DNA from: a virus
Reading direction: 5' to 3' (one strand)
IMG/VR virus record: IMGVR_UViG_3300045988_123862
Coordinates: 1-13,196 of that record
Length of the DNA: 13,196 bases
A model generated the notes under the pieces. It was not told the DNA's origin. It made no database searches and was given only the letters and a program-made list of their open reading frames with translations. Both the position numbers and the translations under genes were made by a program. Shown here piece by piece: positions 1 through 13,137 of this stretch (position 1 is its first letter; each line of letters starts with the position of its first letter).

Positions 1-59
1 CTAAAGTGCTAAAGCGTAAGCAATGCTTTAGTGTAGTAAAGTGGTAAAGCGGTGAAGCG
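1..59. repeat. Terminal octamer reiterations NTAAAG(T/C)G; candidate replication-origin / TP-polymerase recognition region
   Basis: CTAAAGTG (1-8), CTAAAGCG (9-16), GTAAAGTG (36-43), GTAAAGCG (44-51), GTGAAGCG (52-59). An inverted GCTTTAG (25-31) can pair with CTAAAGC (9-15). Confidence 0.7.
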
Positions 60-120
60 AGTGCAAATAAAAAATAATACCCTTACGCGATAAAGAGCAA
101 AAATATTTAGTTAAATAAGA

Positions 121-149
121 TTAACAAATACATAAAAGAAAAATATAAT
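121..149 (+). promoter_or_regulatory. Sigma-A type promoter, outer one in the left ITR
   Basis: TTAACA (121-126), 17-bp spacer, TATAAT (144-149), with AT-rich sequence upstream. Confidence 0.6.
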
Positions 150-165
150 GTTTACAAATTATTCA

Positions 166-194
166 TTGACAATGGCGGTGTAGTGTGGTATACT
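166..194 (+). promoter_or_regulatory. Sigma-A type promoter, inner one in the left ITR, with extended -10
   Basis: TTGACA (166-171), 17-bp spacer, TATACT (189-194) preceded by TGg (186-188). The predicted start near 200 leaves a leader of roughly 80 nt before ATG 284. Confidence 0.7.
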
Positions 195-252
195 ATATAT
201 AGAGTTAAGGGAGAGGACAAGAAAAGAAACCTTAACAAATAAAATTTTTAAA

Positions 253-268
253 GTTGCAACGTTGCAAC
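253..268. promoter_or_regulatory. 16-bp palindrome GTTGCAACGTTGCAAC, copy 1 (exact), in the left ITR leader
   Basis: Exact 16-mer located between the ITR promoters and the SD. It ends 15 nt before ATG 284. Confidence 0.9.
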
Positions 269-283
269 AGAAAGGAAATTACC

Positions 284-943
284 ATGGAGAACATTATTAA
301 ATCAGAGAGTACAAACATTATGAACACATTCAAGAGCAATGCTCTGAGAGAAAGCACTCAGCGTATCTTTACAAGAATGGTGAATGTTGAGGACAACAAG
401 AAAGCTATCTGTACTGACCTTGCCGAGATATACAACAACGGCACATGGAAAGACGATTTCGGTGACTTTGGCGATTACACCATGACAATGTTTAATATCA
501 CAAAGTCAACAGCAAGCCGTATGAGAAGAGTTTCAGATAAGTTCATAACTGACATTAACTCACTGCTCAATGCTGAAATGTTCACATTCAATCAGCTTGC
601 AGTGCTGGTAACTCTTGACAATGAAGTTATCGAGAACTCAATGATAAACCCAGACATGACAATAAAACAGCTGAGAGAGTTTGTCAACAGCACCAAGGCA
701 CTTGAAATGAAAGACACTGAGGAAGCGGTAGAAAAGGAACTCGAGGAAATAGAAGATGAAGTTGAGGAAACAATAAGGGCTGAAAGTTGCAACGTTGCAA
801 CTAATGAAGAGGAAAATCCGAGAGATTTGGCACATTTTGAAAATCTTAAAGAGCTGTCAATGTGGGTCAATAAGCTTATGGAAAAAAGAGAAAATATCGA
901 AAATATTAACATGTCTTTTGATATTACAACAAAAGCACACTGA
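284..943 (+). CDS. HTH DNA-binding protein; first gene behind the left ITR promoters (candidate regulator)
   Basis: ATG 284 lies 7 nt after SD AAAGGA (271-276). The track start at 254 is a TTG inside the palindrome. FGDYTMTMFNITKSTASRMRRVSDKF reads as a helix-turn-helix of the ParB/DUF3102-like style (recollection, not searched). The C-terminal third is E/D-rich. Confidence 0.7.
   Translation: MENIIKSESTNIMNTFKSNALRESTQRIFTRMVNVEDNKKAICTDLAEIYNNGTWKDDFGDFGDYTMTMFNITKSTASRMRRVSDKFITDINSLLNAEMFTFNQLAVLVTLDNEVIENSMINPDMTIKQLREFVNSTKALEMKDTEEAVEKELEEIEDEVEETIRAESCNVATNEEENPRDLAHFENLKELSMWVNKLMEKRENIENINMSFDITTKAH
786..801. promoter_or_regulatory. 16-bp palindrome, copy 2 (exact), inside the HTH gene
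   Basis: Exact 16-mer encoding ..CNVAT.., 142 nt before the stop of CDS 284..943. Confidence 0.9.
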
Positions 944-962
944 GTATTAATTACTCAGTGTG
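936..962 (+). other. 11-bp stem / 5-nt loop hairpin overlapping the stop of the HTH gene
   Basis: CACACTGAGTA (936-946), TTAAT loop, TACTCAGTGTG (952-962). No U-tract follows, so it is not a canonical intrinsic terminator. Confidence 0.5.
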
Positions 963-984
963 ATAGAAAGAGAGGTGAATAAAA

Positions 985-1191
985 ATGAAAAAACTTTTTA
1001 AATGTGAGCTGTGTGGCAAAATTTATGAAGACGAAATAAAAGCTAAACAGTGTGAAAAAGGGCATGAGTACCCCTCTGAGGTTAAGCCCCTTGCTTACGG
1101 TGAGGGTTCTACATACCCCTATAAGGTTAAAGTAAAGTTTGGTAACTGTGAAGCAGTTTACAGATATGACAGCGGATTGTGGGGAATGTAG
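985..1191 (+). CDS. Small Cys-rich protein (CxxC-x12-CxxxH), function unknown
   Basis: SD AGAGGTG lies 8 nt upstream of ATG 985. The ORF encodes 68 aa, with KCELCGKIYEDEIKAKQCEKGH resembling a zinc-finger or zinc-ribbon knuckle. Confidence 0.6.
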   Translation: MKKLFKCELCGKIYEDEIKAKQCEKGHEYPSEVKPLAYGEGSTYPYKVKVKFGNCEAVYRYDSGLWGM

Positions 1192-1193
1192 CC

Positions 1194-1418
1194 ATGAAAA
1201 AAAGAACAAAAACAACATTAATTTCAGTTGTGATAATTTTAGCATTTGTCTTGTTTAATGTTTTTACCGATTACATTAATTGGAACGGCGGAAAATGCAG
1301 AGAGTGTAATGCACCATGGAAGTTAGTAGCAGTAACTAACAATGGCATTAGATTGTATCATTATGTTTGCCCAAAATGTGGAAAAACTATTGAAATAACA
1401 TGGCACATAGGGGGTTAA
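1194..1418 (+). CDS. Small membrane-anchored Zn-ribbon protein, function unknown
   Basis: ATG 1194 starts 2 nt after the previous stop; the track's GTG at 1179 is less likely. The protein has a basic N-terminus (KKRTK), one TM segment (LISVVIILAFVLFNVF), then CRECN...CPKCG (4-Cys ribbon). Confidence 0.6.
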   Translation: MKKRTKTTLISVVIILAFVLFNVFTDYINWNGGKCRECNAPWKLVAVTNNGIRLYHYVCPKCGKTIEITWHIGG

Positions 1419-1422
1419 GGTT

Positions 1423-1584
1423 ATGAAGATAACAATAAAATCAATCGTAACAATCCTACTAACGATTGTATTTTGTCTACTATCACTAGCAGGAAAGATA
1501 ACGAGTGACCAGTATATGACAGTATTTACAACTGTTATCGCCTTTTATTTTGGCACTCAGTTCTCAAAAAATGGTAAAGTATAA
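1423..1584 (+). CDS. Small 2-TM membrane protein (holin/antiholin-like); below the ORF-track size cutoff
   Basis: My own translation gives MKITIKSIVTILLTIVFCLLSLAGKITSDQYMTVFTTVIAFYFGTQFSKNGKV. GGGGGT lies 7-8 nt upstream. The stop TAA overlaps the next ATG (TAATG), suggesting translational coupling within a lysis cluster. Confidence 0.5.
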   Translation: MKITIKSIVTILLTIVFCLLSLAGKITSDQYMTVFTTVIAFYFGTQFSKNGKV

Positions 1585-1793
1585 TGTGGAGTACGATAAT
1601 AGTTGCGGTGCTATCCTTGATAGGAACATTTATTGGTAGCTATTCGGGGTTCAAGCTGACAGAATATAGGGTACAACAGTTAGAGAACCGAGTGGCAGAA
1701 CACAACAACTTTGCAAGACGGTTACCAGTTGTTGAAGAACAGATAAAGGTAATCAACCATAGATTAACAGATTTGGAGGAAAAAGAAAAATGA
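1584..1793 (+). CDS. Holin-like protein, BhlA/UviB type
   Basis: An N-terminal TM segment (STIIVAVLSLIGTFIGSYSGF) is followed by a charged coiled-coil tail. ATGA overlaps with the endolysin start, directly upstream of the lysin. Confidence 0.6.
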   Translation: MWSTIIVAVLSLIGTFIGSYSGFKLTEYRVQQLENRVAEHNNFARRLPVVEEQIKVINHRLTDLEEKEK

Positions 1794-2458
1794 CATTTAA
1801 GGAATATGTTTCTAAAACCCTTGGCAAGTCGGTTGAGTTTGACGGAGTTTATCCTTACCAGTGTTGCGATTTAGTAAACGACTATATGCAGAAATGTTTT
1901 AACGTTTTTACATATTATCCATACAATTTCAATGCACAGCAGTATTTTACACGTTTCAATGAGGTATCGGCTCTTGTAAAGAATTTTACAAAAATTGCAA
2001 ATACCCCAGAATTTGTACCAATGCAAGGTGATATTTGTATTTTTAAATCGGCTGATAATATCGGGCATATCTCAATAGCCACTGGTGAGGGAGATACAAG
2101 GTATTTTTACAGTTATGACCAGAACTGGAACGGACACAACTTTGTCGCAAAAGAACGGCATACCTATACTAATTTCTTAGGTGTTCTGAGATATAAAGGC
2201 AATGCCCTTGATACTACAGGTTTAAAACGTGGAGATAATAATGTAGGTGTTTACGCATACAAAATGATGTTAAAACTTGCAAAAACTTGTAAAATAATTA
2301 GTACAAGTGTTGATTTTAACGGCATATACGGCAAGGGTACTGAAAAGGCTACAAACGAGATTTTGCGGAAGCTGAAAAAGAAAGAAAATGGAATAGCAGG
2401 GGTAAAGCTAATCAACGCACTTTATGAAGCTATTCTTGACAAAGTAGTTAATTTTTAA
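1790..2458 (+). CDS. Endolysin: N-terminal CHAP peptidase/amidase plus C-terminal putative peptidoglycan-binding domain
   Basis: CHAP-type catalytic context is present: PYQCCDLVNDY (Cys) and IGHISIA (His). The C-terminal 70 aa (GVYAYKMMLKLA...NGIYGKGTEKATNEILRKL) resembles PG_binding_1. Confidence 0.85.
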   Translation: MTFKEYVSKTLGKSVEFDGVYPYQCCDLVNDYMQKCFNVFTYYPYNFNAQQYFTRFNEVSALVKNFTKIANTPEFVPMQGDICIFKSADNIGHISIATGEGDTRYFYSYDQNWNGHNFVAKERHTYTNFLGVLRYKGNALDTTGLKRGDNNVGVYAYKMMLKLAKTCKIISTSVDFNGIYGKGTEKATNEILRKLKKKENGIAGVKLINALYEAILDKVVNF

Positions 2459-2505
2459 CAGATAATACGTTATGTGAGCATTTAACAATACAACAGCAAA
2501 TTGAT

Positions 2506-2548
2506 AATAATTAACATTTATAAAAATAATTAACATTTATAAAAATAA
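2506..2548. repeat. Tandem direct repeat, 19-bp unit AATAATTAACATTTATAAA x 2.3
   Basis: Exact copies occupy 2506-2524 and 2525-2543, with a partial copy at 2544-2548. It lies in the 188-nt non-coding gap between the lysin and SSB genes. Confidence 0.9.
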
Positions 2549-2646
2549 GAGTGCTAAACCGTTATTGTTATCTAACGTACATAACTATTATATATTACGG
2601 TCACACAATATTGAACAAATTACAAAACATGAAAGAGGTTTTAAAC

Positions 2647-2985
2647 ATGAGTGGATTTAACGTAAACATGACAAAAAAGGACATATTTAACGCAAAAAGT
2701 GGAAGCATTTCAATCAAGACAGCAGAAGCGGCAGAGTGGCACACTGTATCGGGCTGTGCAGTGGTAGAAAATGGTGGACTTGACAGAGATAAGAAGCCAT
2801 GTGATATTGGCTATATTGCTACTGATATCGGGGTGTTTGGGTTCTCGTCAAAGGTCTGCCTAGACCATATGGAAGAGTTGGCAGATATTCTCAGCGACTG
2901 CCTTAACGACGGTGAAGAAGTAAAGGTAAGATTTGTAAAGGGTAAATCAACCAACGGCGAGTTCTATTCAATTCAGATACAGTAA
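2647..2985 (+). CDS. Single-stranded DNA-binding protein, phi29 p5-like
   Basis: SD AAAGAGG lies 8 nt before ATG 2647; the track start at 2551 has no SD. IFNAKSGS and the C-terminal VKVRFVKGKSTNGEFYSIQIQ match my recollection of phi29 p5 (IFNAQTGG ... KVKVVQGTSSKGNVFFSLQL). The size of 112 aa is similar. Confidence 0.6.
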   Translation: MSGFNVNMTKKDIFNAKSGSISIKTAEAAEWHTVSGCAVVENGGLDRDKKPCDIGYIATDIGVFGFSSKVCLDHMEELADILSDCLNDGEEVKVRFVKGKSTNGEFYSIQIQ

Positions 2986-3000
2986 ATAACAAATCGGCAG

Positions 3001-3027
3001 AACGTGGCAATAAAAAGTTGCCACGTT
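3001..3027. other. 10-bp stem hairpin built from a degenerate half copy plus the first part of palindrome copy 3
   Basis: AACGTGGCAA (3001-3010), loop TAAAAAG, TTGCCACGTT (3018-3027). Confidence 0.6.
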
Positions 3028-3032
3028 GCAAC
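3017..3032. promoter_or_regulatory. 16-bp palindrome, copy 3 (1 mismatch: GTTGCcACGTTGCAAC), upstream of the connector gene
   Basis: Preceded by AAAAA. It ends 21 nt before TTG 3054. Confidence 0.85.
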
Positions 3033-3053
3033 CGATTGAAAGGGGTGAAAAAA

Positions 3054-4010
3054 TTGGGTTCAAAAATAAAGCCGTGGAGTTGGAGTGAGTTCGGGGTATC
3101 AAACATTGATAAATCACAATTAACAAGCTACTATTACAAAATGCTGTTAAATCGTGTTATTAATATGTTTACATGGGAAAATCTACCTGATACAATTGAT
3201 GAGCAAGTGATGAATTTTTGGCTATTTGTTACTGGAAGAGTTGTTTTCACTGAGTTTAATGGAAAACTATATGCACTAAATGGTAATTACGGTGGTTATC
3301 CTAACGAATACTATTTACCTACTGAATTTGTTGTAGCTAATCCGATTTTAGGAAATAAAATCGTAAAGTTAGATATTGACGGAGTTGCAATGTTTAACAG
3401 TGATACGGATAAATACCCTACACAAGGGCTAGTGGGTGGTTTATATCCTATATTGACGCTAACAGCAAATATGTTGGCTGATTGCGTAACAACAATTTCC
3501 AGTGCATTGAAAAACGGCAGAGTTCAAACAGCGTTTATATGTAAAGATGATACAGTGCGAATTGCAGGGGAAAAAGTTCTAAAACAGTTATACAACGGTA
3601 ATCCAGCCGTTATGATTGATGATACAATACTAAATTGTATTTCGCCAATCAAAATGGCAGATAATACAAGTGTTGCTACAATCCTACAACAGACAGTTGA
3701 AACGTACCAATTTTGGTTGGCTAATTTTTACAATTCTATCGGTGTAAACGCAAATTTCAACATGAAACGAGAACGGCTAAACACGGCTGAGGTTAATATT
3801 AACGATAGTGCATTATTTGTAAATGTTGTTAATATGCTAAATAACCGTCAGCAGGCAGTCGATAAAATTAACGCTATGTTTGGGGTAGACATTTCTGTAA
3901 AAATTTCTGAAGAGTGGAAGGATTTAGTAAAAACTGAGGAAGAGCCTACCGAGGAAAATCCAACAGAGGAAGAGGGAAACGACAATGCGAAAGATGATAA
4001 CGCTGAATGA
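3054..4010 (+). CDS. Head-tail connector / upper collar (portal), phi29 gp10-like
   Basis: TTG 3054 lies 7 nt after GGGGTG. MFTWENLPDTID matches phi29 gp10 LFEWENLPPTIN, and NMKRERLNTAEV matches KKERMVTDEV. The C-terminal tail is acidic. Confidence 0.9.
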   Translation: MGSKIKPWSWSEFGVSNIDKSQLTSYYYKMLLNRVINMFTWENLPDTIDEQVMNFWLFVTGRVVFTEFNGKLYALNGNYGGYPNEYYLPTEFVVANPILGNKIVKLDIDGVAMFNSDTDKYPTQGLVGGLYPILTLTANMLADCVTTISSALKNGRVQTAFICKDDTVRIAGEKVLKQLYNGNPAVMIDDTILNCISPIKMADNTSVATILQQTVETYQFWLANFYNSIGVNANFNMKRERLNTAEVNINDSALFVNVVNMLNNRQQAVDKINAMFGVDISVKISEEWKDLVKTEEEPTEENPTEEEGNDNAKDDNAE

Positions 4011-4656
4011 ATGGGCTGAAAAATTCCCTGCTATAAGTACTATTTTTGACAAGGTATCAGCAGACTTGAAGCTATTTACAGTTTTCACGTCCTCTGAAAT
4101 GTTCTCTTATTTTATAAACAAGTTCGGCGAACGTGATTTTTATAAGTATTATGATAATGCAACAAGTAATGCCAATATGGTAAAACAGGCAAGCGACTAT
4201 ATAGCATTATATGGTAAATCTCACAAGTATGAGTATGACAAGCTAGTCGATACCCTATCACTGGAATACAACCCCATTGAGAACTATTCCATGACAGAAA
4301 AAGGAACAGATACACGAACACCAAATATCACGCAAACCAATAAGGGAACAAATACCAATACCGCAGGAGTTGACACTGCAATCACAACAGGCAAAACTAC
4401 ATTTGATAAATCAGATAGTTTTATCAATGATACAAAAACTACCAATACAGGAACTAACACCGATACGCAGGATATAGACACTACAGTAACAACAGCAGGA
4501 AATGAAAAAACCGAGCATGAACTTACAAGAAGTGGCAATATCGGAGTTACCACGTCACAACAGATGATTGAAAGTGAACGTAAATTGGCAATGTTTTCTG
4601 TAGTCGATTTGTTCGTTAAGGCAATAGCTGATATTATTCTAATCGGAGTATATTAA
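3985..4656 (+). CDS. Lower collar protein, phi29 gp11-like
   Basis: It lies immediately after the connector with a 26-nt overlap and an upstream SD GAGGAAGAGGGA. The central region is T/N-rich and beta-prone. The C-terminal SGNIGVTTSQQMIESE motif is typical of lower-collar proteins as I recall them. Confidence 0.6.
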   Translation: MRKMITLNEWAEKFPAISTIFDKVSADLKLFTVFTSSEMFSYFINKFGERDFYKYYDNATSNANMVKQASDYIALYGKSHKYEYDKLVDTLSLEYNPIENYSMTEKGTDTRTPNITQTNKGTNTNTAGVDTAITTGKTTFDKSDSFINDTKTTNTGTNTDTQDIDTTVTTAGNEKTEHELTRSGNIGVTTSQQMIESERKLAMFSVVDLFVKAIADIILIGVY

Positions 4657-4660
4657 AAAA

Positions 4661-4676
4661 GTTGCAACGTTGCAAC
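4661..4676. promoter_or_regulatory. 16-bp palindrome, copy 4 (exact), upstream of the small-ORF/MCP module
   Basis: Preceded by AAAAAA (4655-4660). It ends 16 nt before ATG 4693. Confidence 0.9.
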
Positions 4677-4692
4677 TAGAAAAGAGGAGAAA

Positions 4693-4980
4693 ATGCAAAA
4701 AGTGAGAAGTCCTACATATGCTGAAAATTATGTCAATCTTGCAAGAGCGGTTGTATTAAAAGTAGTAGTAGATACGCTCCAAAATAAGGAAGATTTAAAA
4801 GACTATATTTTATATAGTGATGATTTTGTGTTTTGGTTATGCCTTGCAGATTGGTTAAAATATGAAAATGTTATTAAAGATAAGTTTTCATGTTTTAAAG
4901 GGATTGACAATACGCTAAGAAAGAAACTAAATAACTATTATCGCTTAAAAGGCGAAGAAATAAAGAGAGGTAAATTATAA
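4693..4980 (+). CDS. Hypothetical protein (95 aa) in the position phi29 uses for scaffold gp7
   Basis: SD AAGAGGAG is followed by ATG 4693, and TAATG couples it to the MCP gene. I recognise no sequence similarity to gp7; the scaffold idea rests on position and size only. Confidence 0.55.
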   Translation: MQKVRSPTYAENYVNLARAVVLKVVVDTLQNKEDLKDYILYSDDFVFWLCLADWLKYENVIKDKFSCFKGIDNTLRKKLNNYYRLKGEEIKRGKL

Positions 4981-6119
4981 TGAAAGTTACACAAATTGCC
5001 ACAATTTTGAATGAAGCACAGCAGGAGATAATCGGAGAAGCCGCAATAACAACGGAAAATCTTGAAAACGTTGTTGATATGGGCAAGCAGATTTTGGAAG
5101 CTACAGACGTTGACAACTATGTTCGCAAGCTGATTGACAAAGTTGGCAGAATGATTTTTGTAGACAGGGTTTACAACTCAACAGCTCCTGATATTTTGAC
5201 GGATAGTTGGGAGTATGGCTCTGCAATGCAAAAAGTCCGCTGTGAAATGCCTGACGCAGTTGAGAATGACAGTTGGAAATTGACAAACGGTCAGAGTTAT
5301 GACCCATTCGTTTTTACAGCCCCCGACGTTCAATCAAAATTTTATGACAGTAAGGTGACATATGAAGTGCAGATGTCATTCACAGAAATGCAGGTCAAGA
5401 GTGCATTTAATTCACCGGCTGAAATGAATAGCTTTTTTGCTATGATTGAAAACAGAATACGTTTTAAGCTCACTTTGTCAAATGATATACTTAAAACACG
5501 AACTGTTAATAATCTCATAGCAGAAAAGATACACAGCAATAACAATGTTGTTAATCTTTTGACAATGTATAACACAGAGTTTACCCAGACCCTGAAAGCA
5601 GATCATGCTCTTATGGATAAAGACTTTTTGAGATATGCAATTGGCAAAATCAAGGAGTATATTAAGTACATTCAGCGTCCGTCAATGATGTTCAATGACG
5701 GCGGTTACACAACTTTTACTCCTGAAAGTGACATGAAAATGGTGCTTTTGTCAAGATTTGTAAATACTGCTGAGGTATACCTACAGAGTGACACATTCCA
5801 TAATGACCTTGTGAAACTGACTGGTTACTCAGAAGTGCCATATTGGCAGGGTAGCGGAACAGGTGAAACTTTTGATTTTGCGGAAATTTCAAAAATCGAT
5901 GTTACAACTGCAAGCGGTAACGCAGTATCTCAGACAGGTATTATCGGAACTATTTTTGACCGTGACGCGTGTATGGTATGCAATGCTAATCCGAGAGTAA
6001 CTAGCATTTACAATCCAAAGGGCGAATACTGGAACTATTTTTACAAGTATGACGCTAGCTATTTCAATGATACAATGGAAAATTGTGTTGTATTTATAGT
6101 AGCAGACGCAAAAAAGTAA
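4980..6119 (+). CDS. Major capsid protein, phi29 gp8-like
   Basis: IYNPKGEYWNYFYKY matches phi29 gp8 VRNPRGLYWNYYYHV. The N-terminal region also resembles gp8 (DKVGRMIF versus DRIGLVVI). Size and position fit. Confidence 0.88.
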   Translation: MKVTQIATILNEAQQEIIGEAAITTENLENVVDMGKQILEATDVDNYVRKLIDKVGRMIFVDRVYNSTAPDILTDSWEYGSAMQKVRCEMPDAVENDSWKLTNGQSYDPFVFTAPDVQSKFYDSKVTYEVQMSFTEMQVKSAFNSPAEMNSFFAMIENRIRFKLTLSNDILKTRTVNNLIAEKIHSNNNVVNLLTMYNTEFTQTLKADHALMDKDFLRYAIGKIKEYIKYIQRPSMMFNDGGYTTFTPESDMKMVLLSRFVNTAEVYLQSDTFHNDLVKLTGYSEVPYWQGSGTGETFDFAEISKIDVTTASGNAVSQTGIIGTIFDRDACMVCNANPRVTSIYNPKGEYWNYFYKYDASYFNDTMENCVVFIVADAKK

Positions 6120-6142
6120 CAGTATAACAAAATGATAGTTAA

Positions 6143-6172
6143 AACGTTGCAACCCTAAAAAGTTGCAACGTT
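6143..6172. other. 11-bp stem hairpin built from an extra half copy plus the first part of palindrome copy 5
   Basis: AACGTTGCAAC (6143-6153), loop CCTAAAAA, GTTGCAACGTT (6162-6172). Confidence 0.6.
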
Positions 6173-6177
6173 GCAAC
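6162..6177. promoter_or_regulatory. 16-bp palindrome, copy 5 (exact), upstream of the tail module
   Basis: Preceded by AAAAA. An extra AACGTTGCAAC half copy lies at 6143-6153. The motif ends 20 nt before ATG 6198. Confidence 0.9.
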
Positions 6178-6197
6178 TATATAGAGAGGGTGAAAAA

Positions 6198-6698
6198 ATG
6201 CCTATAATTACAAGTTATCAATGTTCGCAGGACATACGAACAATTTCAAAAACACTAACAAACGCAGTAGAATATAATTGTGAAATACTGGATATTATGA
6301 ACAGTTTCACACCCCATATAAGATTATTTTGCACATCTGAAACTTTTAATGCCAATATGGTGTATATACCATTTTTTGATAGATATTATCATATAATTTC
6401 GACGGAAATTGAAAGTGCAGAAACTATTATTTTACAATGTGAATTTGATATATTTACATATTCAGTAGCACTATTATCTAGCGAATTTTTAGTTACTAGA
6501 AATGAAAATATTGGAAGTACATATATCCCCGATACAATGTTACCATTAAAAGGTAATAAGGAAATGAAAGTAATTGAATTTACTGGGGGAGATTTTAATC
6601 TTGACAGTGCCACGGTAAATAGTTACAATTTTGTGCTAAATGTGGCAGGTGGTGGAAGTAATCAAGGAACGGCAGAAAATGGGGGTTTAAACATATGA
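6198..6698 (+). CDS. Hypothetical virion-module protein (166 aa)
   Basis: SD GAGAGGGTG lies 6 nt before ATG 6198; the track start at 6171 is a TTG inside the palindrome. ATGA couples it to the tail-knob gene. I recognise no motif. Confidence 0.6.
   Translation: MPIITSYQCSQDIRTISKTLTNAVEYNCEILDIMNSFTPHIRLFCTSETFNANMVYIPFFDRYYHIISTEIESAETIILQCEFDIFTYSVALLSSEFLVTRNENIGSTYIPDTMLPLKGNKEMKVIEFTGGDFNLDSATVNSYNFVLNVAGGGSNQGTAENGGLNI
6601..6629 (+). promoter_or_regulatory. Candidate internal sigma-A promoter ahead of the tail-knob gene
   Basis: TTGACA (6601-6606), 17-bp spacer, TACAAT (6624-6629), about 66 nt upstream of ATG 6695. It lies inside CDS 6198..6698, and in AT-rich DNA it could be a chance match. 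Confidence 0.35.
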
Positions 6699-8782
6699 AG
6701 TTAAATAAAGAAATTTATTCCAGTGACCGCAGTATATCCATAGATTTTTTAAGTGGCATTAAAACAACTCAGTCATTAGAAACTTTGGTTAATAATGGTA
6801 AATTACAACTAAACAGCCCCATTGATGAATCAATTTTTTATGCGGTTGATTTTAACCCCCCTGATGATTATTTTGTCCGCAGTGGGTATAGGAAACCAAA
6901 TCAATCGGAATTTGTAACTGGTACAAATACCCCTAGCGGTGTATGTGCTATGTTTGGACGTTTAAACACTAGAGACACATTACAAAATAGACCTGTATAC
7001 GCTAACCAGTTAACAACAACATATTATAGACTAGCATATGACAGTAATAGTAGTAGTAGGTTAGGATATTATTTCGGCACTGAGTATAAATTAAAAGATT
7101 TTCTCTTTTTGATACGAGTGATAGCTTACAAATTTGAATATTCTGAAATGGGTGACGTATCATCATTTAGCGATAGAATTGATGTTGACGTTATCACATT
7201 TGAACAAAATTACAAAAATAGTCACCACATTGTCGGTATGTATGCAGCACCGTATTATTTTAGGGCTGACCTTAATGACCGCAAATTGTGCCAAGGTTTT
7301 AATATTATCCCATTTTGTACATATTCAAAAAATTCTATGGTGGATAATTATGACGTTTACGGTGCATTATTTTTTGGCGATTATGACCAAGATCACGCAA
7401 TTTTGAATAATTTCATTTATGGGTGTGATGATTTGAATACTAACTATTTTAATAGATATGATTACTATTATGCAAATTTAGGCTATAACGATTTGTGGGA
7501 TAAAACATATTTTGCAATTAATAGTAGTGTATATACTGGATATTTGCCAGTTTTTGACTACAGTATTGAAAACATTCATAAATTATATAGCAGAATGGGA
7601 ACATATTATACATTCTCTAAAAATTTAGCCGAGCAGGAAAATTTAAACCAAAATGGTATATATTGCGGTATTATATCAGATGACGGAAAAATTACAGGGA
7701 AATATTCTGAGGGTGCAGAAAATGCAAAACAAATTCAAACAACGTGGGATACCCCTACAGATTGGCAGGATAATCCATTTAATGGTATCAGTAATACAGA
7801 CTCGAATAACTACACTGACAAAATAGATTTAAATAAACCCACACTATCAAATGTGAACGTTTTCAATCGTAGTTTTGCAGTTAATGCAAATACTGTAAAA
7901 AATTTGGCTGATTTTTTGTGGAACGCAGATGAAACGAAATTTCAAGAAATTGTAAAAGGTTTAGCGTTAATGGGTGAAAATCCTATGAATGGAATTATTG
8001 GCTTGCTTTTATTTCCATTTAATGTAGCATTGAAAAATTCTGCTACAGGGGCAGAAAATATCGTTATTGGCAGAACTGATACAGGGGTATCAGGTATCAA
8101 ATTAACAGAAAAAGTAAACAGTTTAATTGATTTAGGTGAATGTACATTTTTTACTAAATTCAAAAATTTCCTAGACTATGAACCATACACAACAGCACAA
8201 TTATATATACCATATATTGGTGTTGTACCAGTTTCAACGGCTGAATTTATGGGGCATAGAATATCGGTTAAAATGATAGTTGACTATACCACAGGTGCAG
8301 GAACTGCCATAGTATTTAAAGACGATATACCTTTTATTTACAGAAATGGTGTAGTAGGTATATCAATTCCAATGACTGGAAACGATAGTGCTAGTTATGC
8401 TAGTACAGTTATTGGAAATGTAGTCGGTGGTGCTGTTGGTGGTGTATCGTCAATCGCTAGCGGAAATGTTGGCGGTATGGTTAGCAGTGCAGAAAAATTA
8501 TACAGTGGCTTTGCAACTGGTACTAATTACCAAGAGGCTAGTGCAAGTTCTCCGTCGGTTGCAACGTGGCAACCGCAACGATGTTATTTTATAATTGACC
8601 GTCCTATTTTAAATGTACCTGATAATTATGGGCGGACGATTGGTTTTGCGTGTGAAAAAACTGGTAAACTATCAGATTTTAAAGGTTTTACAGTTGTTAG
8701 CAATCCTGAAATTAATTTCAGATGTACGGACAGTGAAAGGCAGTATATAGTAAATATGTTACAAGGCGGTGTATTTGTATGA
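6695..8782 (+). CDS. Tail knob / distal tail tube protein, phi29 gp9-like
   Basis: It is the largest structural ORF (695 aa) in the tail position. The C-terminal half has YIPYIGVVPV...ISVKMIVDYTTGAGTAIV and a long Gly/Val/Ser hydrophobic loop (GNVVGGAVGGVSSIASGNVGGMVSSA), like the membrane-active loop described for phi29 gp9. Confidence 0.6.
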   Translation: MKLNKEIYSSDRSISIDFLSGIKTTQSLETLVNNGKLQLNSPIDESIFYAVDFNPPDDYFVRSGYRKPNQSEFVTGTNTPSGVCAMFGRLNTRDTLQNRPVYANQLTTTYYRLAYDSNSSSRLGYYFGTEYKLKDFLFLIRVIAYKFEYSEMGDVSSFSDRIDVDVITFEQNYKNSHHIVGMYAAPYYFRADLNDRKLCQGFNIIPFCTYSKNSMVDNYDVYGALFFGDYDQDHAILNNFIYGCDDLNTNYFNRYDYYYANLGYNDLWDKTYFAINSSVYTGYLPVFDYSIENIHKLYSRMGTYYTFSKNLAEQENLNQNGIYCGIISDDGKITGKYSEGAENAKQIQTTWDTPTDWQDNPFNGISNTDSNNYTDKIDLNKPTLSNVNVFNRSFAVNANTVKNLADFLWNADETKFQEIVKGLALMGENPMNGIIGLLLFPFNVALKNSATGAENIVIGRTDTGVSGIKLTEKVNSLIDLGECTFFTKFKNFLDYEPYTTAQLYIPYIGVVPVSTAEFMGHRISVKMIVDYTTGAGTAIVFKDDIPFIYRNGVVGISIPMTGNDSASYASTVIGNVVGGAVGGVSSIASGNVGGMVSSAEKLYSGFATGTNYQEASASSPSVATWQPQRCYFIIDRPILNVPDNYGRTIGFACEKTGKLSDFKGFTVVSNPEINFRCTDSERQYIVNMLQGGVFV
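8558..8573. promoter_or_regulatory. 16-bp palindrome, copy 6 (1 mismatch: GTTGCAACGTgGCAAC), inside the tail-knob gene
   Basis: Encodes ..VATWQP.. and lies 221 nt upstream of the next gene start (8779). The flanking CG..CG extends the dyad. Confidence 0.8.
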
Positions 8783-9330
8783 TGAATGAACATTTTGCAA
8801 GCGGTTTAACAAATGAGCAGTTAAAGGCAGAAATTTTAAGGCAAGGACGTAAAGCAAATTTACGTCTTAGCCAATTGAAAAAAACTGGAATGTATAGTAA
8901 AAATCCTATAATTTCTAGTAAATGGAATACTTTTTTGCATGAAAACAAATTTGCTACAAAAAAGAACTTTTTCAAAACTGGTTCAAAGGGTGAAACGAGA
9001 GCAGAAATGTTAAAACACTATGTGCAGATTAGACAGTTTCTAGGGCAGAAAACAACAGTAAAAGAAACGAGAGCTATTATGTCAAAACACGCAAAACGTT
9101 TAAATATTTCTGAGGAAAATGTTGACAGAGTTTTATCAATTTTCGGCAATAGCGGAATAAGTGCAGAATTACCGAATAGTGATTTTGTACAGCAATTTAT
9201 TGCTGAAATGGTTGAAAATGGGTTTAATGATAATGAAATAAATTCATTATTGAACACCCTTGAAAGTTCGGCACAAACACAAAGTGAAATGTACGATTTA
9301 ATGCGTGAACAACTTCAAATGTTGGAATAG
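8779..9330 (+). CDS. Terminal protein candidate (183 aa)
   Basis: It lies directly upstream of the protein-primed polymerase, as gene 3 precedes gene 2 in phi29. The basic N-terminal KAEILRQGRKANLRLSQLKKTG and GETRAEMLKHYVQIRQF loosely resemble phi29 TP KAEYARLVKNTKAKIARTKKKYG and ETRAQFNKWKEQASSF (recollection). Confidence 0.45.
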   Translation: MMNEHFASGLTNEQLKAEILRQGRKANLRLSQLKKTGMYSKNPIISSKWNTFLHENKFATKKNFFKTGSKGETRAEMLKHYVQIRQFLGQKTTVKETRAIMSKHAKRLNISEENVDRVLSIFGNSGISAELPNSDFVQQFIAEMVENGFNDNEINSLLNTLESSAQTQSEMYDLMREQLQMLE

Positions 9331-9345
9331 TTGCAACGTTGCAAC
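9330..9345. promoter_or_regulatory. 16-bp palindrome, copy 7 (exact), between the TP candidate and the polymerase
   Basis: Overlaps the last base of stop TAG 9328-9330. Flanks extend it to the 22-bp palindrome ATAGTTGCAACGTTGCAACTAT (9327-9348). It ends 23 nt before TTG 9369. Confidence 0.9.
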
Positions 9346-9368
9346 TATTCTTTAAAGGGGTGTAATAG

Positions 9369-11507
9369 TTGATAAATGTAAATGATTTTGATTTTGATAT
9401 TCTAAAAAATAGTAATTTACAAACTGTTACAACTAGAAATCGCGATAATCAATATATAGAATATTATAACGCACCTTTTGCATTTGATATTGAAACTAGT
9501 TCATTTTATGACGGTGAAAATAAACGTGCGTGTATGTATATTTTTATGTTTGCATTAAATGGTAATTATGTATACGGTAGGACATGGGAAGATTTTGATT
9601 TTACATTGAATAAGTTAAGAGAAGTATTACAATTAAATGAATACAGAAGAATTATAATATATATTCATAATTTAGGATATGAGTTTCAGTTTCTAATCGG
9701 TCATGAACGGTTCAAAGATGTTTTTGCTAGAAATGCACGTCACCCTATTAAATGTACTATGAATGATTGTTTTGACCTGAAATGTAGTTTAATGCTAAGT
9801 GGTATGAGCCTAGCAAAGACGGCCGAGGACTTGACAAGCGTAAAAATACAAAAATTAACAGGTGACCTCGATTATAAACTTTTACGAACATGGAAGACAC
9901 CTTTAACAAAAGAAGAATTTGGATATTGTGAACATGATGTTAAAATATTACATTATTTTATACTTGAAGAAATGGCAAAAAATGATAATGATATAACAAA
10001 AATACCATTAACTAAAACAGGATATGTAAGAAAATATTGCCAAAACTACATTAAGAAACATACATATTATCCAAAATATAGAGAAAAAATTAAGAAGATA
10101 GCCCCAGTTAATAAAGACTTGTTTTGCCTATTACACAAAAGTTTCATGGGTGGGTATACTCATGCTAACTATATGTATGTGGGAATGGTATTAGAAAATG
10201 TTGCCAGTATTGACTTTACAAGTTCTTATCCGTCCGTTATGATTAGAAAGAAGTATCCAATGCAACCATTTACAAAAGTTCACATAAAAAATTTAACAGA
10301 TTTTAGATATTGTATTAAAAATTATCCATGTGCTTTTGAAGTGGAATTAACTAACGTTGTTGCTAAAAAATGTAATCATATTTTATCACGTTCAAAATGT
10401 TCCGTTTGTGATAATGCAATAGTTGATAATGGGCGAATTGTATCGGCAGATAGAATATTTACATATTTTACAGATATTGACTTTAAAGATTTTGAAGAAT
10501 TTTATTCTTATGAGCATTTATCAATTGGTAAATTTTACACGTCAAGTTATGGATATTTACCAAAACAAATTATTGAATGTGCGTTAAAATTTTACAACGA
10601 TAAGACCACGTTGAAAGGTGTTGCAGGAAAAGAAGTTGAGTATTTAGTCGGTAAAGGTATGCTGAATAGTTTGTTTGGAATGTGCGTGACAAACCCAGTA
10701 AACGATGATATTGTTTTTGACGGAAAAGAATGGAATACGGAGAAGAAAGATATTTCAGAAGCATTACAAGAAAATTACATAAAGAACAAAAAACAGGTAT
10801 TAGTATATCAGTGGGGAGTGTGGATTACTGCATGGGCTAGGCACGAACTTTTCAAGGGTATATTAGAAATTAATGAAGATGTTATTTATTGTGATACAGA
10901 TAGTATAAAATTTTTAAACTATGAAAATTATGAAAACTGGATAAATGAATATAACAAAAATTGTATTAACGAGATTAACAAAGCGTTGACATACTATGAA
11001 ATTGATTTGAATTTAGCAAAACCTAAAACAATTAAAGGCATTAAAAAGCCCCTAGGTGTATGGGATTTTGAGGGAATTTATAAAAAATTTAAAACACTAG
11101 GTGCTAAAAGATATGCTTATGAAGAAAATGAAAAATTTAATATTACAGTGTCAGGATTAAATAAAAAACGTGCTGTGCCGTATATAGTTGCAACGTTGCA
11201 ACCGTTTGAATTTTTTGACAATGAAATGTATATCCCGAAAGAGTATACAGGTAAAAATACATTAACATATATTAACGAACCATACAAAATTATGGTAAAA
11301 GACTACCAAGGAAATTATGCAGAAGTGGAAGAAAATACCTATATCCATATGGAGGAGCAGGACTATAATATGTCATTATCTGAACAATTCATACATTATT
11401 TAATGTGTGGCACAAATTTTGGTAGCGGAGCAAAAGAGCATACATTATTTGAAAAAAGCCAAGAATTGGCTACAAATTTCTGGGAGTGTGATTACAATGA
11501 AAAATGA
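9369..11507 (+). CDS. Protein-primed family-B DNA polymerase, phi29 gp2-like
   Basis: TTG 9369 lies 6 nt after GGGGTG. Motifs present: ExoI FDIETS, ExoII HNLGYEFQF, ExoIII YCEHDVKIL, motif A DFTSSYPSVM, motif B KGMLNSLFGM, motif C YCDTDSIKF, and KxY LGAKRYAY. Confidence 0.95.
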   Translation: MINVNDFDFDILKNSNLQTVTTRNRDNQYIEYYNAPFAFDIETSSFYDGENKRACMYIFMFALNGNYVYGRTWEDFDFTLNKLREVLQLNEYRRIIIYIHNLGYEFQFLIGHERFKDVFARNARHPIKCTMNDCFDLKCSLMLSGMSLAKTAEDLTSVKIQKLTGDLDYKLLRTWKTPLTKEEFGYCEHDVKILHYFILEEMAKNDNDITKIPLTKTGYVRKYCQNYIKKHTYYPKYREKIKKIAPVNKDLFCLLHKSFMGGYTHANYMYVGMVLENVASIDFTSSYPSVMIRKKYPMQPFTKVHIKNLTDFRYCIKNYPCAFEVELTNVVAKKCNHILSRSKCSVCDNAIVDNGRIVSADRIFTYFTDIDFKDFEEFYSYEHLSIGKFYTSSYGYLPKQIIECALKFYNDKTTLKGVAGKEVEYLVGKGMLNSLFGMCVTNPVNDDIVFDGKEWNTEKKDISEALQENYIKNKKQVLVYQWGVWITAWARHELFKGILEINEDVIYCDTDSIKFLNYENYENWINEYNKNCINEINKALTYYEIDLNLAKPKTIKGIKKPLGVWDFEGIYKKFKTLGAKRYAYEENEKFNITVSGLNKKRAVPYIVATLQPFEFFDNEMYIPKEYTGKNTLTYINEPYKIMVKDYQGNYAEVEENTYIHMEEQDYNMSLSEQFIHYLMCGTNFGSGAKEHTLFEKSQELATNFWECDYNEK
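11187..11202. promoter_or_regulatory. 16-bp palindrome, copy 8 (exact), inside the DNA polymerase gene
   Basis: Encodes ..VATLQP.. and lies 310 nt upstream of the ATPase start (11497). Confidence 0.9.
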
Positions 11508-12588
11508 ATACTATTCATTAAAAAAGATTAATAAGTTAAATGCCCTATACAATTTGATTATAGGGCAGAGGTCAAACGGAAAAACATACTCAGTGTGCAA
11601 ACAGGAAATAGAAGGCTACTTCAAAGAAAATTTTCGACTTGCATACATAAGAAGATACGATGAGGAAATAATGCCTAAGAATATACAGAATTTGTTTAAA
11701 CCACATTCAGCACTAATTGAAAAATTATCTAATGGTCAGTTTAACAGCACCACATATAAAAATAGGGAATTTTATTTATATAATAAAGATACTGAGGAAA
11801 AAAGCGAACAAAGTTTTTGCAAGTGTTTTTCGCTGAACGCCTGGGAGCGTACAAAAGGTGCAGACAATGGATATTTTAAATATATACTATTTGATGAATT
11901 TATGACACGTTCTTTTTACCTTAATAATGAATTTGTTACATTTACTCAATTACTATCATCTATCATTCGTGACAGGGATAACACAATTATTTATATGATA
12001 GCAAATACTGTCAATCAATACTGCCCTTACTTTGCCGAAATGGGCTTGGGTAAAATTTCAGATATTAAACAGGGTGACTTGAAATTATTTACATATGGTG
12101 ATAGTGAATTAACTCTCGCTTTGGAATATTCAGATAGTAGGGGTCAGACTGGAAAAGTTAGTAAATATTTTGCTTTTGATAATCCACAATTGAAAATGAT
12201 TACCACAGGGCAGTGGGAAATTAAAAATTACCCCCACGCACCGTTTAAAATCAAAAAGGAAAATATTGTATATAGGGCATATATATTCTTTGACAATGAT
12301 GTTATTGCTTGCAATATTATTCATTATGAAAATACTGTATTTCTATTTTTTAATATTCAGACAAAGACGGAAAACCTCGAATTAAAAAAGAGGGTTGTAT
12401 ACAGTTTTGAAACTGATACAAACCCCCTGCACGTCCAATCACTGGCAGAACAGCCAACAGACGTACATAAACTTATTAATAATTTAATAACATTTAATCG
12501 TGTATTCTATGCAGATAATTCAGTAGGTGAAATTGTTAGAAACTGGATAAATGCACAAAGCAAGCACTCTATAAGTTTAAGAACATAA
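11497..12588 (+). CDS. DNA packaging (encapsidation) ATPase, phi29 gp16-like
   Basis: ATG 11497 overlaps the polymerase stop by 11 nt. LYNLIIGQRSNGKTYS matches gp16 ILNFVIGARGIGKSYA (Walker A), LAYIRRY matches FIYVRRY, and ILFDEF matches IVFDEF (Walker B). Confidence 0.9.
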   Translation: MKNEYYSLKKINKLNALYNLIIGQRSNGKTYSVCKQEIEGYFKENFRLAYIRRYDEEIMPKNIQNLFKPHSALIEKLSNGQFNSTTYKNREFYLYNKDTEEKSEQSFCKCFSLNAWERTKGADNGYFKYILFDEFMTRSFYLNNEFVTFTQLLSSIIRDRDNTIIYMIANTVNQYCPYFAEMGLGKISDIKQGDLKLFTYGDSELTLALEYSDSRGQTGKVSKYFAFDNPQLKMITTGQWEIKNYPHAPFKIKKENIVYRAYIFFDNDVIACNIIHYENTVFLFFNIQTKTENLELKKRVVYSFETDTNPLHVQSLAEQPTDVHKLINNLITFNRVFYADNSVGEIVRNWINAQSKHSISLRT

Positions 12589-12592
12589 AAAT

Positions 12593-12627
12593 AACCCCAC
12601 GAAATTAATCGTGGGGTTTGTTTTTTG
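12593..12627. terminator. Bidirectional rho-independent terminator between the convergent genes
   Basis: AACCCCACGA (12593-12602), loop AATTAA, TCGTGGGGTT (12609-12618), then TTTGTTTTTTG. On the minus strand the hairpin is followed by ATTTTTAT. Confidence 0.85.
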
Positions 12628-12912
12628 TTATATCACATAATCTCTTAACACTGCCTGAATGTTTGTCATTGTAGGTTTTACATATTCCTCATCATAAACG
12701 TCACACAATAAATCACTTATGTTTTCATATCTGAGATAACCGTTAGGGGTTTTTTCCTGATTTTCCCAGAACCACTCAACAGAAGCACACGCAACCGTAT
12801 TTGTTATAGTGTCAAATATAATCATTACAATTGGTCCATGTGATTTAGTTGCACTATTATATCTACCTACTGCCTTTTTAATTCCTTTAACCTCTGTACC
12901 ATTAATTTTCAT
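12628..12912 (-). CDS. Hypothetical 94-aa protein; the only minus-strand gene, driven by the right ITR promoters
   Basis: ATG 12912 lies 8 nt after the ITR-borne SD AAAGGA. The ORF ends at the bidirectional terminator. I recognise no motif; the C-terminal half is acidic. Confidence 0.75.
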   Translation of the reverse strand: MKINGTEVKGIKKAVGRYNSATKSHGPIVMIIFDTITNTVACASVEWFWENQEKTPNGYLRYENISDLLCDVYDEEYVKPTMTNIQAVLRDYVI

Positions 12913-12928
12913 TTCAATCGTCCTTTCT

Positions 12929-12944
12929 GTTGCAACGTTGCAAC
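12929..12944. promoter_or_regulatory. 16-bp palindrome, copy 9 (exact), in the right ITR leader
   Basis: Mirror of copy 1. It lies 16 nt from the ATG (12912) of the minus-strand gene. Confidence 0.9.
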
Positions 12945-13002
12945 TTTAAAAATTTTATTTGTTAAGGTTTCTTTTCTTGTCCTCTCCCTTAACTCTATAT
13001 AT

Positions 13003-13031
13003 AGTATACCACACTACACCGCCATTGTCAA
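13003..13031 (-). promoter_or_regulatory. Sigma-A type promoter, inner one in the right ITR (mirror of 166-194)
   Basis: Reverse complement reads TTGACA-17-TGgTATACT and faces inward. Confidence 0.7.
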
Positions 13032-13047
13032 TGAATAATTTGTAAAC

Positions 13048-13076
13048 ATTATATTTTTCTTTTATGTATTTGTTAA
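13048..13076 (-). promoter_or_regulatory. Sigma-A type promoter, outer one in the right ITR (mirror of 121-149)
   Basis: Reverse complement reads TTAACA-17-TATAAT and faces inward toward CDS 12912..12628. Confidence 0.6.
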
Positions 13077-13137
13077 TCTTATTTAACTAAATATTTTTGC
13101 TCTTTATCGCGTAAGGGTATTATTTTTTATTTGCACT

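Follow-up and report, generated by a model that had tools for sequence, protein, structure and literature searches.

Genome organization and distribution of the palindrome

We analysed a stretch of viral DNA of 13,196 nucleotides (IMG/VR record IMGVR_UViG_3300045988_123862, positions 1 to 13,196; hereafter the window), along which a 16-bp palindrome, GTTGCAACGTTGCAAC, is repeated from one end to the other. An earlier note, made from the sequence alone, had described this motif as punctuating every gene module and had put forward operator sites, RNA hairpins or centromere-like sites as its possible roles. The window is a complete linear phi29-like phage genome of 13.2 kb, bounded by a perfect pair of 276-bp inverted terminal repeats (ITRs; 1-276 and 12921-13196, 100% complementary). 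Recognisable products are a Phi29-type major capsid protein, a connector, a type-B protein-primed DNA polymerase, a gp16-type packaging ATPase, which is the sole ATPase, and a CHAP lysin. The window encodes no integrase, ParA or telomerase, and neither an RNA polymerase nor a recognisable sigma factor was found among its proteins. All genes are directed rightward except g17 (94 aa) at the right end, and a bidirectional terminator lies at 12593-12618. Each ITR carries, in this order, a promoter, one copy of the motif and the first gene. The left-ITR promoter (166-194, plus strand) is of sigma-70 type by sequence match (near-consensus TTGACA-17-TGnTATACT) and the right-ITR promoter is its mirror image (13031-13003, minus strand). 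Megablast against GenBank phages gave no match for the genome. When the capsid protein was used in tblastn, the nearest cultured phages were the ~11-kb Astrithrvirus podoviruses of Gram-negative bacteria and Amedibacillus phages, and several human-faecal contigs were also related.

Seven exact, two one-mismatch and one two-mismatch copies of GTTGCAACGTTGCAAC were found in the window where none is expected, which confirmed the earlier inventory of seven exact copies and one-mismatch copies at 3017 and 8558. That chance is excluded was also upheld, as 0 of 200 dinucleotide-preserving shuffles gave any match to the motif and the octamer GTTGCAAC occurred 17 times, always within motif loci, against 0.32 expected. 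The exact copies at 253-268 and 12929-12944 are a single element seen at both ends, since each falls within the perfect ITR; the eight internal copies amount to about one per 1.3 kb. The left copy follows the -10 box of the ITR promoter at a distance of 58 nt and precedes the g1 ATG by 15 nt, and its position between promoter and gene makes it a putative autoregulatory operator or roadblock. The right copy mirrors it, between the ITR promoter and the minus-strand g17 (start 12912), 16 nt from that start.

At the internal junctions, exact copies were present in the g9-g10 gap (4661-4676; 4 nt past the stop codon, with 16 nt left to the g10 ATG), between the major capsid gene and g12 (6162-6177; 20 nt before the g12 ATG) and over the TAG stop codon of g14 (9330-9345; 23 nt before the polymerase start). 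A one-mismatch copy, GTTGCCACGTTGCAAC, lies in the g7-g8 gap (3017-3032), 21 nt before the connector gene, and a two-mismatch partial copy (6138-6153), poorly conserved as a 16-mer, forms the 5' arm of a composite hairpin after the capsid gene. Three more copies are located within genes, namely an exact one in g1 (786-801), a one-mismatch one, GTTGCAACGTGGCAAC, in the tail gene g13 (8558-8573) and an exact one in the DNA polymerase gene g15 (11187-11202), respectively 183 nt before the next gene, 205 nt before g14 and 294 nt before the packaging ATPase start. The distance of 15-23 nt between spacer copies and start codons, and the location of the in-gene copies well ahead of the following gene, were thus as previously described. 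The motif does not, however, fill every short spacer, since it is absent from the g1-g2 (41 nt) and g6-g7 (188 nt) gaps; together with the three copies inside genes, this means that punctuation of every gene module was an over-reading. Placement at junctions is in itself unremarkable, because any fixed 16-bp sequence would be expected there when a genome has hardly any non-coding DNA.

The motif is palindromic over its whole 16 bp, centre included. The variants GTTGCCACGTTGCAAC and GTTGCAACGTGGCAAC are reverse complements of each other, so that the same variant half-site occurs in both orientations. As the earlier note had pointed out, the in-gene copies are read in two different frames, SCNVAT in g1 versus VATWQP in g13 and VATLQP in g15. 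We compared the motif with known sites. No match to the canonical parS TGTTNCACGTGAAACA was found in the window at up to 3 mismatches; the two are different 16-bp palindromes which share the outer GTT...AAC only. Spo0A boxes (0A box, TGTCGAA) were likewise absent from the window. The copies do not have the GC-rich hairpin plus U-tract of an intrinsic terminator: on the plus strand only the one at 11187 scored as terminator-like, and the A-rich flanks upstream of the copies give T-runs on the antisense strand only. A literature search with the 16-, 14- and 12-mer returned no paper. CcpA cre, LacI/PurR-type sites, sigma-54 -24/-12 elements, the Bacteroidetes -7 box, NrdR, LexA and CIRCE were rejected on spacing or sequence. 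The metbox of MetJ consists of tandem 8-bp palindromes bound by ribbon-helix-helix dimers; this analogy was rejected too, as no ribbon-helix-helix protein was found and g17 is too variable (35-87% identity) among relatives in which the motif is invariant.

Conservation of the sites in close relatives

Scanning viral contigs for the 16-mer yielded 18 close relatives with genomes of 12-13 kb and about 85-90% nucleotide identity, whose proteins were mostly 80-99% identical to those of the window. All nine main sites were present at homologous positions in these genomes with 0-2 mismatches, so that motif as well as position is conserved. The variant base of both one-mismatch sites was kept in nearly all of them (that of 3017 in 15 of 16 aligned). 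Identity was 0.91-1.00 within the motif versus 0.63-0.91 in the 30-nt flanks. Inside g1 the values were 0.91 and 0.63, SCNVAT forming a conserved island within an otherwise variable acidic linker. Single-site substitutions in the relatives (T11 to C, T11 to G and G12 to A) were not biased towards wobble pairs.

Sharply divergent alleles also occur among the close relatives, in the small early genes g2 and g3 (988-1451), in the N-terminal half of the tail protein g13 (6704-7808) and in the putative terminal protein g14 (8779-9330), for which identities are 68-70% versus 92-99%. These alleles indicate module exchange.

The g1 protein

The first gene after the left-ITR copy, g1 (284-943, plus strand), encodes a 219-aa all-helical helix-turn-helix (HTH) protein, with the HTH at about residues 62-88, which resembles the DNA-binding domain (DBD) of ParB/Spo0J as well as PF49 and DUF3102 proteins and is the proposed cognate binder of the palindrome. 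Its AlphaFold model (pLDDT 82) is all-helical and has no beta-containing N-terminal domain. Foldseek matches of the model in the PDB were almost exclusively ParB-family DNA-binding domains, namely Spo0J-parS 4UMK (probability 0.99-1.0), 1VZ0, 6T1F, 6S6H, Noc (7NFU and 7OL9), SopB (3MKW) and VirB; the g1 profile searched against PDB sequences gave coiled-coil noise only. We built a g1-family profile from 44 representatives. Seventeen of these 44 matched NCBIfam NF033725 borfam_49 ('chromosome replication/partitioning protein') at E <= 0.05 (best 1.9e-8), the g1 of the window not being among them. A ParB-like centromeric role is deemed likely for the corresponding Borrelia plasmid family, PF49 (PMC10406323). 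For DUF3102 (PF11300), the g1 of the window had no match at E <= 0.1 and one of the 44 members matched at 0.0024; nr records of close g1 homologues were named DUF3102 by their depositors, and a literature search on DUF3102 returned no functional paper. Across 119 homologues in the lineage of the window the HTH (residues 59-90) was 96-100% conserved and the C-terminus varied, the motif being invariant there. We take g1 to be a CTPase-less protein that is probably ParB-DBD-like in fold and in working logic.

Co-occurrence and co-variation of g1 and palindromes

A search with the polymerase profile gave about 70 further, more distant genomes (40-51% identity). By profile, a g1-type gene was found in the lineage of the window and in L092, L093, L101 and L136, and in 0 of 62 other relatives. 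In an all-against-all search, g1 was the only open reading frame (ORF) family present in 5-6 of the 7 palindrome-bearing lineages and in none of the 62 others. The 62 g1-less relatives had no dispersed palindrome other than parS above three copies, and the g1-bearing genomes had 3-10 palindrome copies, except L293 (two). Additional g1 lineages were retrieved by exact-protein look-up, bringing the number of g1-family lineages that each have a palindrome of their own to about ten. Of the 12 lineages examined, 10 have a copy 14-45 nt ahead of the start of the g1-family gene; exceptions are L297, without any clear palindrome, and L092, in which parS adjoins g1. In other lineages than that of the window the equivalent copy coincides with the transcription start or with the -35 box.

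The palindromes themselves differ between lineages. Two human-faecal contigs carry GTTCGACGTCGAAC (L092; GTTCGAC(G/A)TCGAAC, 8 copies) and GTTCAACNGTTGAAC (L093; GTTCAAC-N-GTTGAAC, 12 copies), both with the order stop codon, site, Shine-Dalgarno, ATG at junctions that is seen in the window. The others are GTTGCCACACGGCAAC in L295 (2 copies), GTTGCGTTAACGCAAC in L298 (7 exact copies), TTCCAGTCAACTGGAA in L296 (3 copies), TTCCACGYRCGTGGAA in L291 (3-4 copies), GTCCGATTAAACGGAC in L293 (2 copies), ATTCCGTACATACGGAAT on a 962-bp contig, L299 (1 copy), and TCTAGTYRACTAGA in L136, with sites in both orientations. Those of L293 and L299 match TCCG-N6-CGGA, as does the palindrome of L101. The centres of the palindromes of relatives are 1-2 nt long. 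Site class goes with the class of the recognition helix of g1, in that SKSxASR pairs with GTTGC..GCAAC, KK(S/T)xAYxL with TCCG-N6-CGGA, and xNNMI with the shared core AGTCAACT. The helix reads SKSTASR in the window, KKTQAY in L101 and SSINNM in L296.

Three of the 8 palindrome copies of L092 (3430, 8933 and 12250; GTTCGATGTCGAAC or GTTCGACATCGAAC) also contain a perfect Spo0A box, TGTCGAA, which may be coincidence.

Canonical parS sites in sister phages

At least one copy of the canonical parS TGTTTCACGTGAAACA was present in 44 of the 62 g1-less relatives, and about 37 had at least three, typically 3-5. In both ITRs such sites directly adjoin the promoter -10 box; others are found at junctions with the order stop codon, parS, Shine-Dalgarno, ATG. 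Carriers include L107 (180, 1293, 4235, 5578 and 12722), L144, L145, L151, L154, L128-L130, L149, L150, L105 and others. This distribution suggests that hijacking of the host ParB/Spo0J is widespread among phi29-like relatives, as in phi29, which, according to a published account (PMC2731898, citing Meijer et al. 2005), uses five parS sites together with host Spo0J to trap its genome in the spore.

Among the g1-bearing genomes, L136 has three near-perfect parS (6383, 6437 and 6491) exactly 54 bp apart within a coding region, and L092 has parS at 10978 and 12024, of which one adjoins its own palindrome and one lies in the g1 leader. Some g1-less relatives have tandem arrays of a different palindrome, TGTTAATTAACA, interleaved with TTAACANTGTTAA that are confined to the ITRs (116-191 and 12256-12331 of L118; also in L155, L160 and L166). 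These arrays may be origin- or terminal-protein-related sites or the sites of another regulator.

Composite RNA hairpins

As RNA, the bare 16-mer would form a 6-bp stem with an ACGU loop (-5.6 kcal/mol), and at 9330 the flanks lengthen the palindrome to 9324-9351 (-15.5 kcal/mol). The half copies reported earlier at two junctions (3001-3011 and 6143-6153) are present and each pairs with the adjacent full copy. Thus, at 2997-3029 (plus strand) the stem is formed by the partial copy 3002-3011 and the first 10 nt of the 3017 copy, with 3 outer pairs in addition (-22 kcal/mol). In 14 distinct sequences 98.9% of the cells of this hairpin were paired, and all six variable pairs change via G-U wobble on the plus strand. 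The second composite hairpin, after the major capsid gene (6135-6180, plus strand), consists of 5-6 bp, an internal loop and 11 bp (-24.5 kcal/mol, z-score -6.3); 100% of its cells were paired in relatives, with one compensatory change of UA to GC and one of CG to UG. Read on the opposite strand, the wobble pairs would turn into A-C mismatches; these are therefore genuine sense-strand structures, likely to form in RNA or possibly in a displaced single DNA strand. An analogous composite hairpin, made from the motif of that lineage, follows the capsid gene of L092. Rfam 15 gave no match on either strand at the gathering score. We read the two hairpins as a probable secondary recruitment of a pre-existing palindrome as an mRNA 3'-stabiliser, attenuator or processing hairpin.

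The same 16-mer in unrelated elements

The 16-mer was also found outside phi29-like phages. A family of ~17-kb TerL-type phages with 44-56% GC (L043, L088/L040, L080/L020, L009, L067 and L033) carries up to 17 copies of the core TTGCAACGTTGCAA, at nearly every gene junction; in L080, for example, copies lie at 1636, 3910, 8792, 12225 and 14673. In this family the motif often overlaps the upstream stop codon and ends 0-2 nt from the next ATG (GTTGCAAC-T-ATG or TTGCAATG), most junctions have no evident Shine-Dalgarno sequence, and there are almost no Pfam matches. The Treponema sp. metagenome-assembled-genome contig JAEDGP010000024.1 (L190) has six copies (1637, 2401, 3772, 4464, 5470 and 5666) in a region resembling an integrative and conjugative element (ICE) or a plasmid, with tyrosine integrase, topoisomerase III, HicB and relaxase. 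Its copies are extended to AAAAAGTTGCAACGTTGCAACTTTTT, which by its sequence looks like a bidirectional terminator or an extended operator. On L030, a viral contig of 66% GC, four exact copies lie within 1.3 kb (124, 174, 947 and 1379) around small ORFs with no informative Pfam match (one weak PsbQ match, E 0.013). L022, a 26-kb contig of 43% GC, has 3 exact and 8 near copies (11 with up to 2 mismatches). L022 and L030 are related neither to the window nor to the TerL-type family. For P0121, no related loci were found in viral contigs. In bacterial genome contigs the 16-mer occurred almost only as singletons and no chromosome was enriched, among the matches listed.

Interpretation

We think it probable, though by no means certain, that the palindromes act at the DNA level as binding sites of the phage's own g1, a protein of the ParB/Spo0J/Noc (PF49-like) HTH type. 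That the motif is read as DNA is supported by the fully palindromic 16-mer, the half-site variant in both orientations, the two reading frames with conserved islands inside genes and the sites in both orientations in L136. Co-occurrence of g1 with a palindrome, their linkage in cis and the co-variation of helix and site classes argue that the two form a protein-site pair. Of the roles offered in the earlier note, that of operator sites, with the product of 284-943 as the predicted binder, is therefore the best supported. We infer from this in silico evidence that g1 binds the sites as a dimer and that silencing, roadblock or segregation is the physiological output.

In the mechanism we propose, the g1 dimer would be expressed early from the host-type promoter of the left ITR. 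The copy at each genome end, between ITR promoter and first gene, would, judging from its position, provide autoregulation or a roadblock of the early transcription unit there. Autoregulation fits the placement of the ITR copies between early promoter and g1 or g17, and of the equivalent copy elsewhere at the transcription start or at the -35 box. Through the eight internal copies, g1 would be loaded over the full length of the 13-kb linear genome, and this loading may lead to genome-wide silencing or compaction, to tethering and segregation, or to both, in a non-lytic carrier or spore-entrapment state. Such a role would parallel that of host Spo0J-parS for phi29 and apparently also for the parS-bearing sister phages. 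Placement at junctions would mainly reflect where a fixed 16-mer fits into a gene-dense genome, and at two junctions the site would have been recruited secondarily as one arm of a long mRNA hairpin.

Several observations weigh against this interpretation. Foldseek E-values for g1 are weak (0.03-2) and TM-scores are 0.35-0.55; the g1 of the window has no direct Pfam or NCBIfam match, and PHROGs was likewise uninformative. The N-terminal ParB/Srx-like CTPase domain of ParB (GxxRxxA box) is absent and neither g1 nor its family has a Pfam ParBc match, nor does the phage encode a ParA (Walker-type ATPase). For these reasons g1 is not a canonical ParB and a classical partition mechanism is not established. 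Centromere or genome organisation, the third of the proposed roles, is nevertheless supported, with g1 as the predicted binder, by the ParB/Spo0J-like fold, the PF49 profile matches and the parS sites at equivalent positions in sister phages, although no partition ATPase is encoded. Of the g1-family lineages, L297 shows no clear palindrome and just two sites occur in L293. Two sites of the window belong to RNA structures with covariation support. Three g1-bearing lineages (L092, L101 and L136) also hold canonical parS. As they carry both, the g1 array is not simply a replacement of parS and the two systems are not fully redundant, which leans slightly towards a regulatory or silencing role for g1. 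Finally, the unrelated elements described above hold several copies of the identical 16-mer or of its core TGCAACGTTGCA. No g1 homologue was detected in these elements by phmmer --max, family hmmsearch, tblastn with 44 queries, a recognition-helix regular expression, or hhalign on two candidate ORFs. A different, possibly host-encoded, binder may recognise this sequence there.

A bolder version, which we consider doubtful, is that tiny phi29-like gut phages use a private, CTPase-less, ParB-like genome marking, in which a rapidly diversifying g1 and co-evolving palindromes would both silence and segregate the linear genome without host Spo0J and give these nominally lytic phages a plasmid-like or spore-borne carrier state. 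It further holds that GTTGCAACGTTGCAAC would be a recurrent second parS-like code, with a still-to-be-named binder in unrelated phages and an ICE-like element, abutting nearly every start codon in one phage family.

Alternative explanations

The motif might instead act mainly in polycistronic mRNA, as a hairpin just ahead of ribosome-binding sites, where an RNase or RNA-binding protein would recognise it for processing, for 5' or 3' stabilisation or as a translational operator. The stabilities of the core and of its three extended versions fit this view, as do the near-complete pairing of the composite hairpins with wobble-compatible or compensatory changes on the sense strand only, the analogous hairpin of L092 and the 15-23 nt between junction copies and start codons. 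A structure, however, needs neither an identical sequence in all copies nor a palindromic loop; three conserved copies lie deep within genes, far from start codons, and single-site substitutions show no wobble bias. These features argue that a hairpin is not the primary role of the array. Moreover, the palindromes of relatives, with their short centres, fold poorly and occur in both orientations. The only co-occurring and co-varying gene encodes a predicted double-stranded DNA-binding HTH protein, at the same junctions sister phages have parS, a genuine DNA site, and Rfam has no match. Hence the RNA-hairpin proposal of the earlier note holds for the composites at 2997-3029 and 6135-6180 and fails for the array as a whole, for which we regard it as unlikely. 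We find it less probable still that a host factor other than g1, such as a ParB paralogue or a global regulator, binds the 16-mer and that unrelated mobile elements sharing a host range converged on it. The multi-copy occurrence of the 16-mer or TGCAACGTTGCA in the TerL-type phages, L022, the Treponema ICE-like contig and the 66%-GC contig, all with no g1 homologue detected, would be accounted for in this way, and sister phages demonstrably use the site of a host factor, parS. The carriers differ in GC content (33-66%) and in Shine-Dalgarno use, though, which makes a common host unlikely; the bacterial matches listed show almost only singletons and no enriched chromosome, and a host factor would not explain why the palindrome changes with the recognition helix of g1 between phi29-like lineages.

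Two further roles have very little probability in our view. If the copies were module promoters or activator sites giving each gene block its own transcript, one would understand why a copy precedes most blocks, including the replication genes downstream of the structural genes, and why TTGCAA resembles a -35 hexamer. Site centres, however, are 23-31 nt from the start codons, and a site at about -41.5 or a -35/-10 pair would put the transcription start in or beyond the start codon, so such a role is unlikely; no conserved -10 box occurs at suitable spacing, the palindromic, orientation-free architecture is atypical, and the phage has no RNA polymerase or recognisable sigma factor of its own. 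As for recombination or module-exchange hot spots, with the copies as microhomologies at mosaic boundaries, the copy-bounded modules g2, g10, g13, g14 and g17 do occur as divergent alleles among close relatives. In the identity profile, the low-identity regions (716-784, 988-1451, 6704-7808 and 12616-12889) generally neither start nor stop at motif copies, and exchange at the motif is more likely a by-product, because any conserved sequence can be a crossover point. Binding by g1 remains the reading we prefer to all of these.

If g1 indeed binds the palindromes, the uncharacterised DUF3102/PF49-like family, which is common in human and animal gut viromes, gains a testable function. About ten natural protein-site pairs with a co-varying recognition helix would offer a system for the evolution of specificity in ParB-type HTH proteins. 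Our data also suggest that, as a rule, the smallest tailed phages (11-13 kb) have either host parS or their own equivalent of it, and that non-lytic persistence or segregation, as in phi29 spore entrapment, may be widespread in gut phages of Firmicutes. It also appears that a predicted protein-binding palindrome can come to serve as one arm of an mRNA hairpin. The sharing of one 16-mer by unrelated mobile elements is flagged here as unexplained.

Other features of the genome

The right-end gene g17 (12628-12912, minus strand) is an early gene under the right-ITR promoter and its 94-aa product has no family match. It is hypervariable, with 35-87% identity among relatives that are otherwise ~90% identical, a pattern typical of host-takeover or anti-defence genes. 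The g6-g7 gap (2459-2646) is the largest non-coding gap; it diverges among relatives and contains, besides two weak promoter-like sites, 2.3 copies of a perfect 19-bp tandem repeat, AATAATTAACATTTATAAA (2506-2548). The relative L005 has an extra motif copy in its g6-g7 gap, at a position equivalent to ~2525 of the window. In the motif-free g1-g2 gap, a hairpin with an 11-bp stem, CACACTGAGTA...TACTCAGTGTG (936-962), overlaps the g1 stop codon, with a T-run on the antisense strand only.

Comparison with known systems

KorB of plasmid RK2 is a ParB-family global regulator with a CTPase domain, 12 OB operators and the partners IncC (ParA) and KorA. The window resembles RK2 in combining a probable ParB-type HTH with one short palindrome repeated about a dozen times on a small replicon, in having promoter-proximal and distal sites including a putative autoregulatory one, and in its predicted flavour of both regulation and partition. 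In contrast to KorB, g1 has no CTPase domain and no ParA partner, and it belongs to a linear, protein-primed phage genome with a 16-bp site of another sequence. The stoperators of cluster A mycobacteriophages, with which the motif had previously been compared, are 13-bp, asymmetric sites oriented with transcription and bound by the immunity repressor of a temperate, integrating phage. Stoperators, like the sites of P1 C1 and the conserved inverted repeats (CIRs) of phiC31, share with our array one operator repeated many times over a phage genome with a preference for short gaps near stop and start codons, and would share with it a single phage-encoded repressor and silencing by roadblock. The logic of that comparison thus stands but the type of site does not, stoperators being asymmetric and orientation-dependent whereas the window has perfect palindromes, a variant half-site in both orientations, a ParB-DBD-like protein and no integrase.

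The linear plasmid-prophage N15 has dispersed SopB inverted-repeat centromere sites among its phage genes, along with SopA/SopB (ParA/ParB) and a telomerase, and effects of these sites on phage gene expression have been suggested. The window is likewise a linear phage genome with several scattered inverted-repeat sites but encodes neither SopA/SopB nor telomerase. In T7-type mRNAs, long imperfect intercistronic RNase III hairpins without a U-tract lie between modules. The two predicted composite hairpins of the window, and only these, are similar in being long, imperfect, free of a U-tract and placed between modules of a polycistronic mRNA; they differ in their shorter stems (~13-17 bp) and in being built from a predicted protein-binding palindrome and a partial copy of it.

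The Spo0J-parS system of phi29 (PMC2731898) likewise has several dispersed 16-bp GTT...AAC palindromes on a genome of the same kind. The window differs from it in having neither parS nor 0A boxes, in a predicted phage-encoded binder instead of host ParB and in a site density about twice as high. Borrelia PF49 is linked to g1 through the borfam_49 matches of g1-family members, and both reside on small, often linear replicons. PF49 works in a cluster with PF32 (ParA), PF50 and PF57/62, none of which occurs in the window. Set beside these systems, the proposed dispersed operator or centromere array of a ParB-type protein is of a known kind, in a setting that is undescribed and with many natural variants of specificity.

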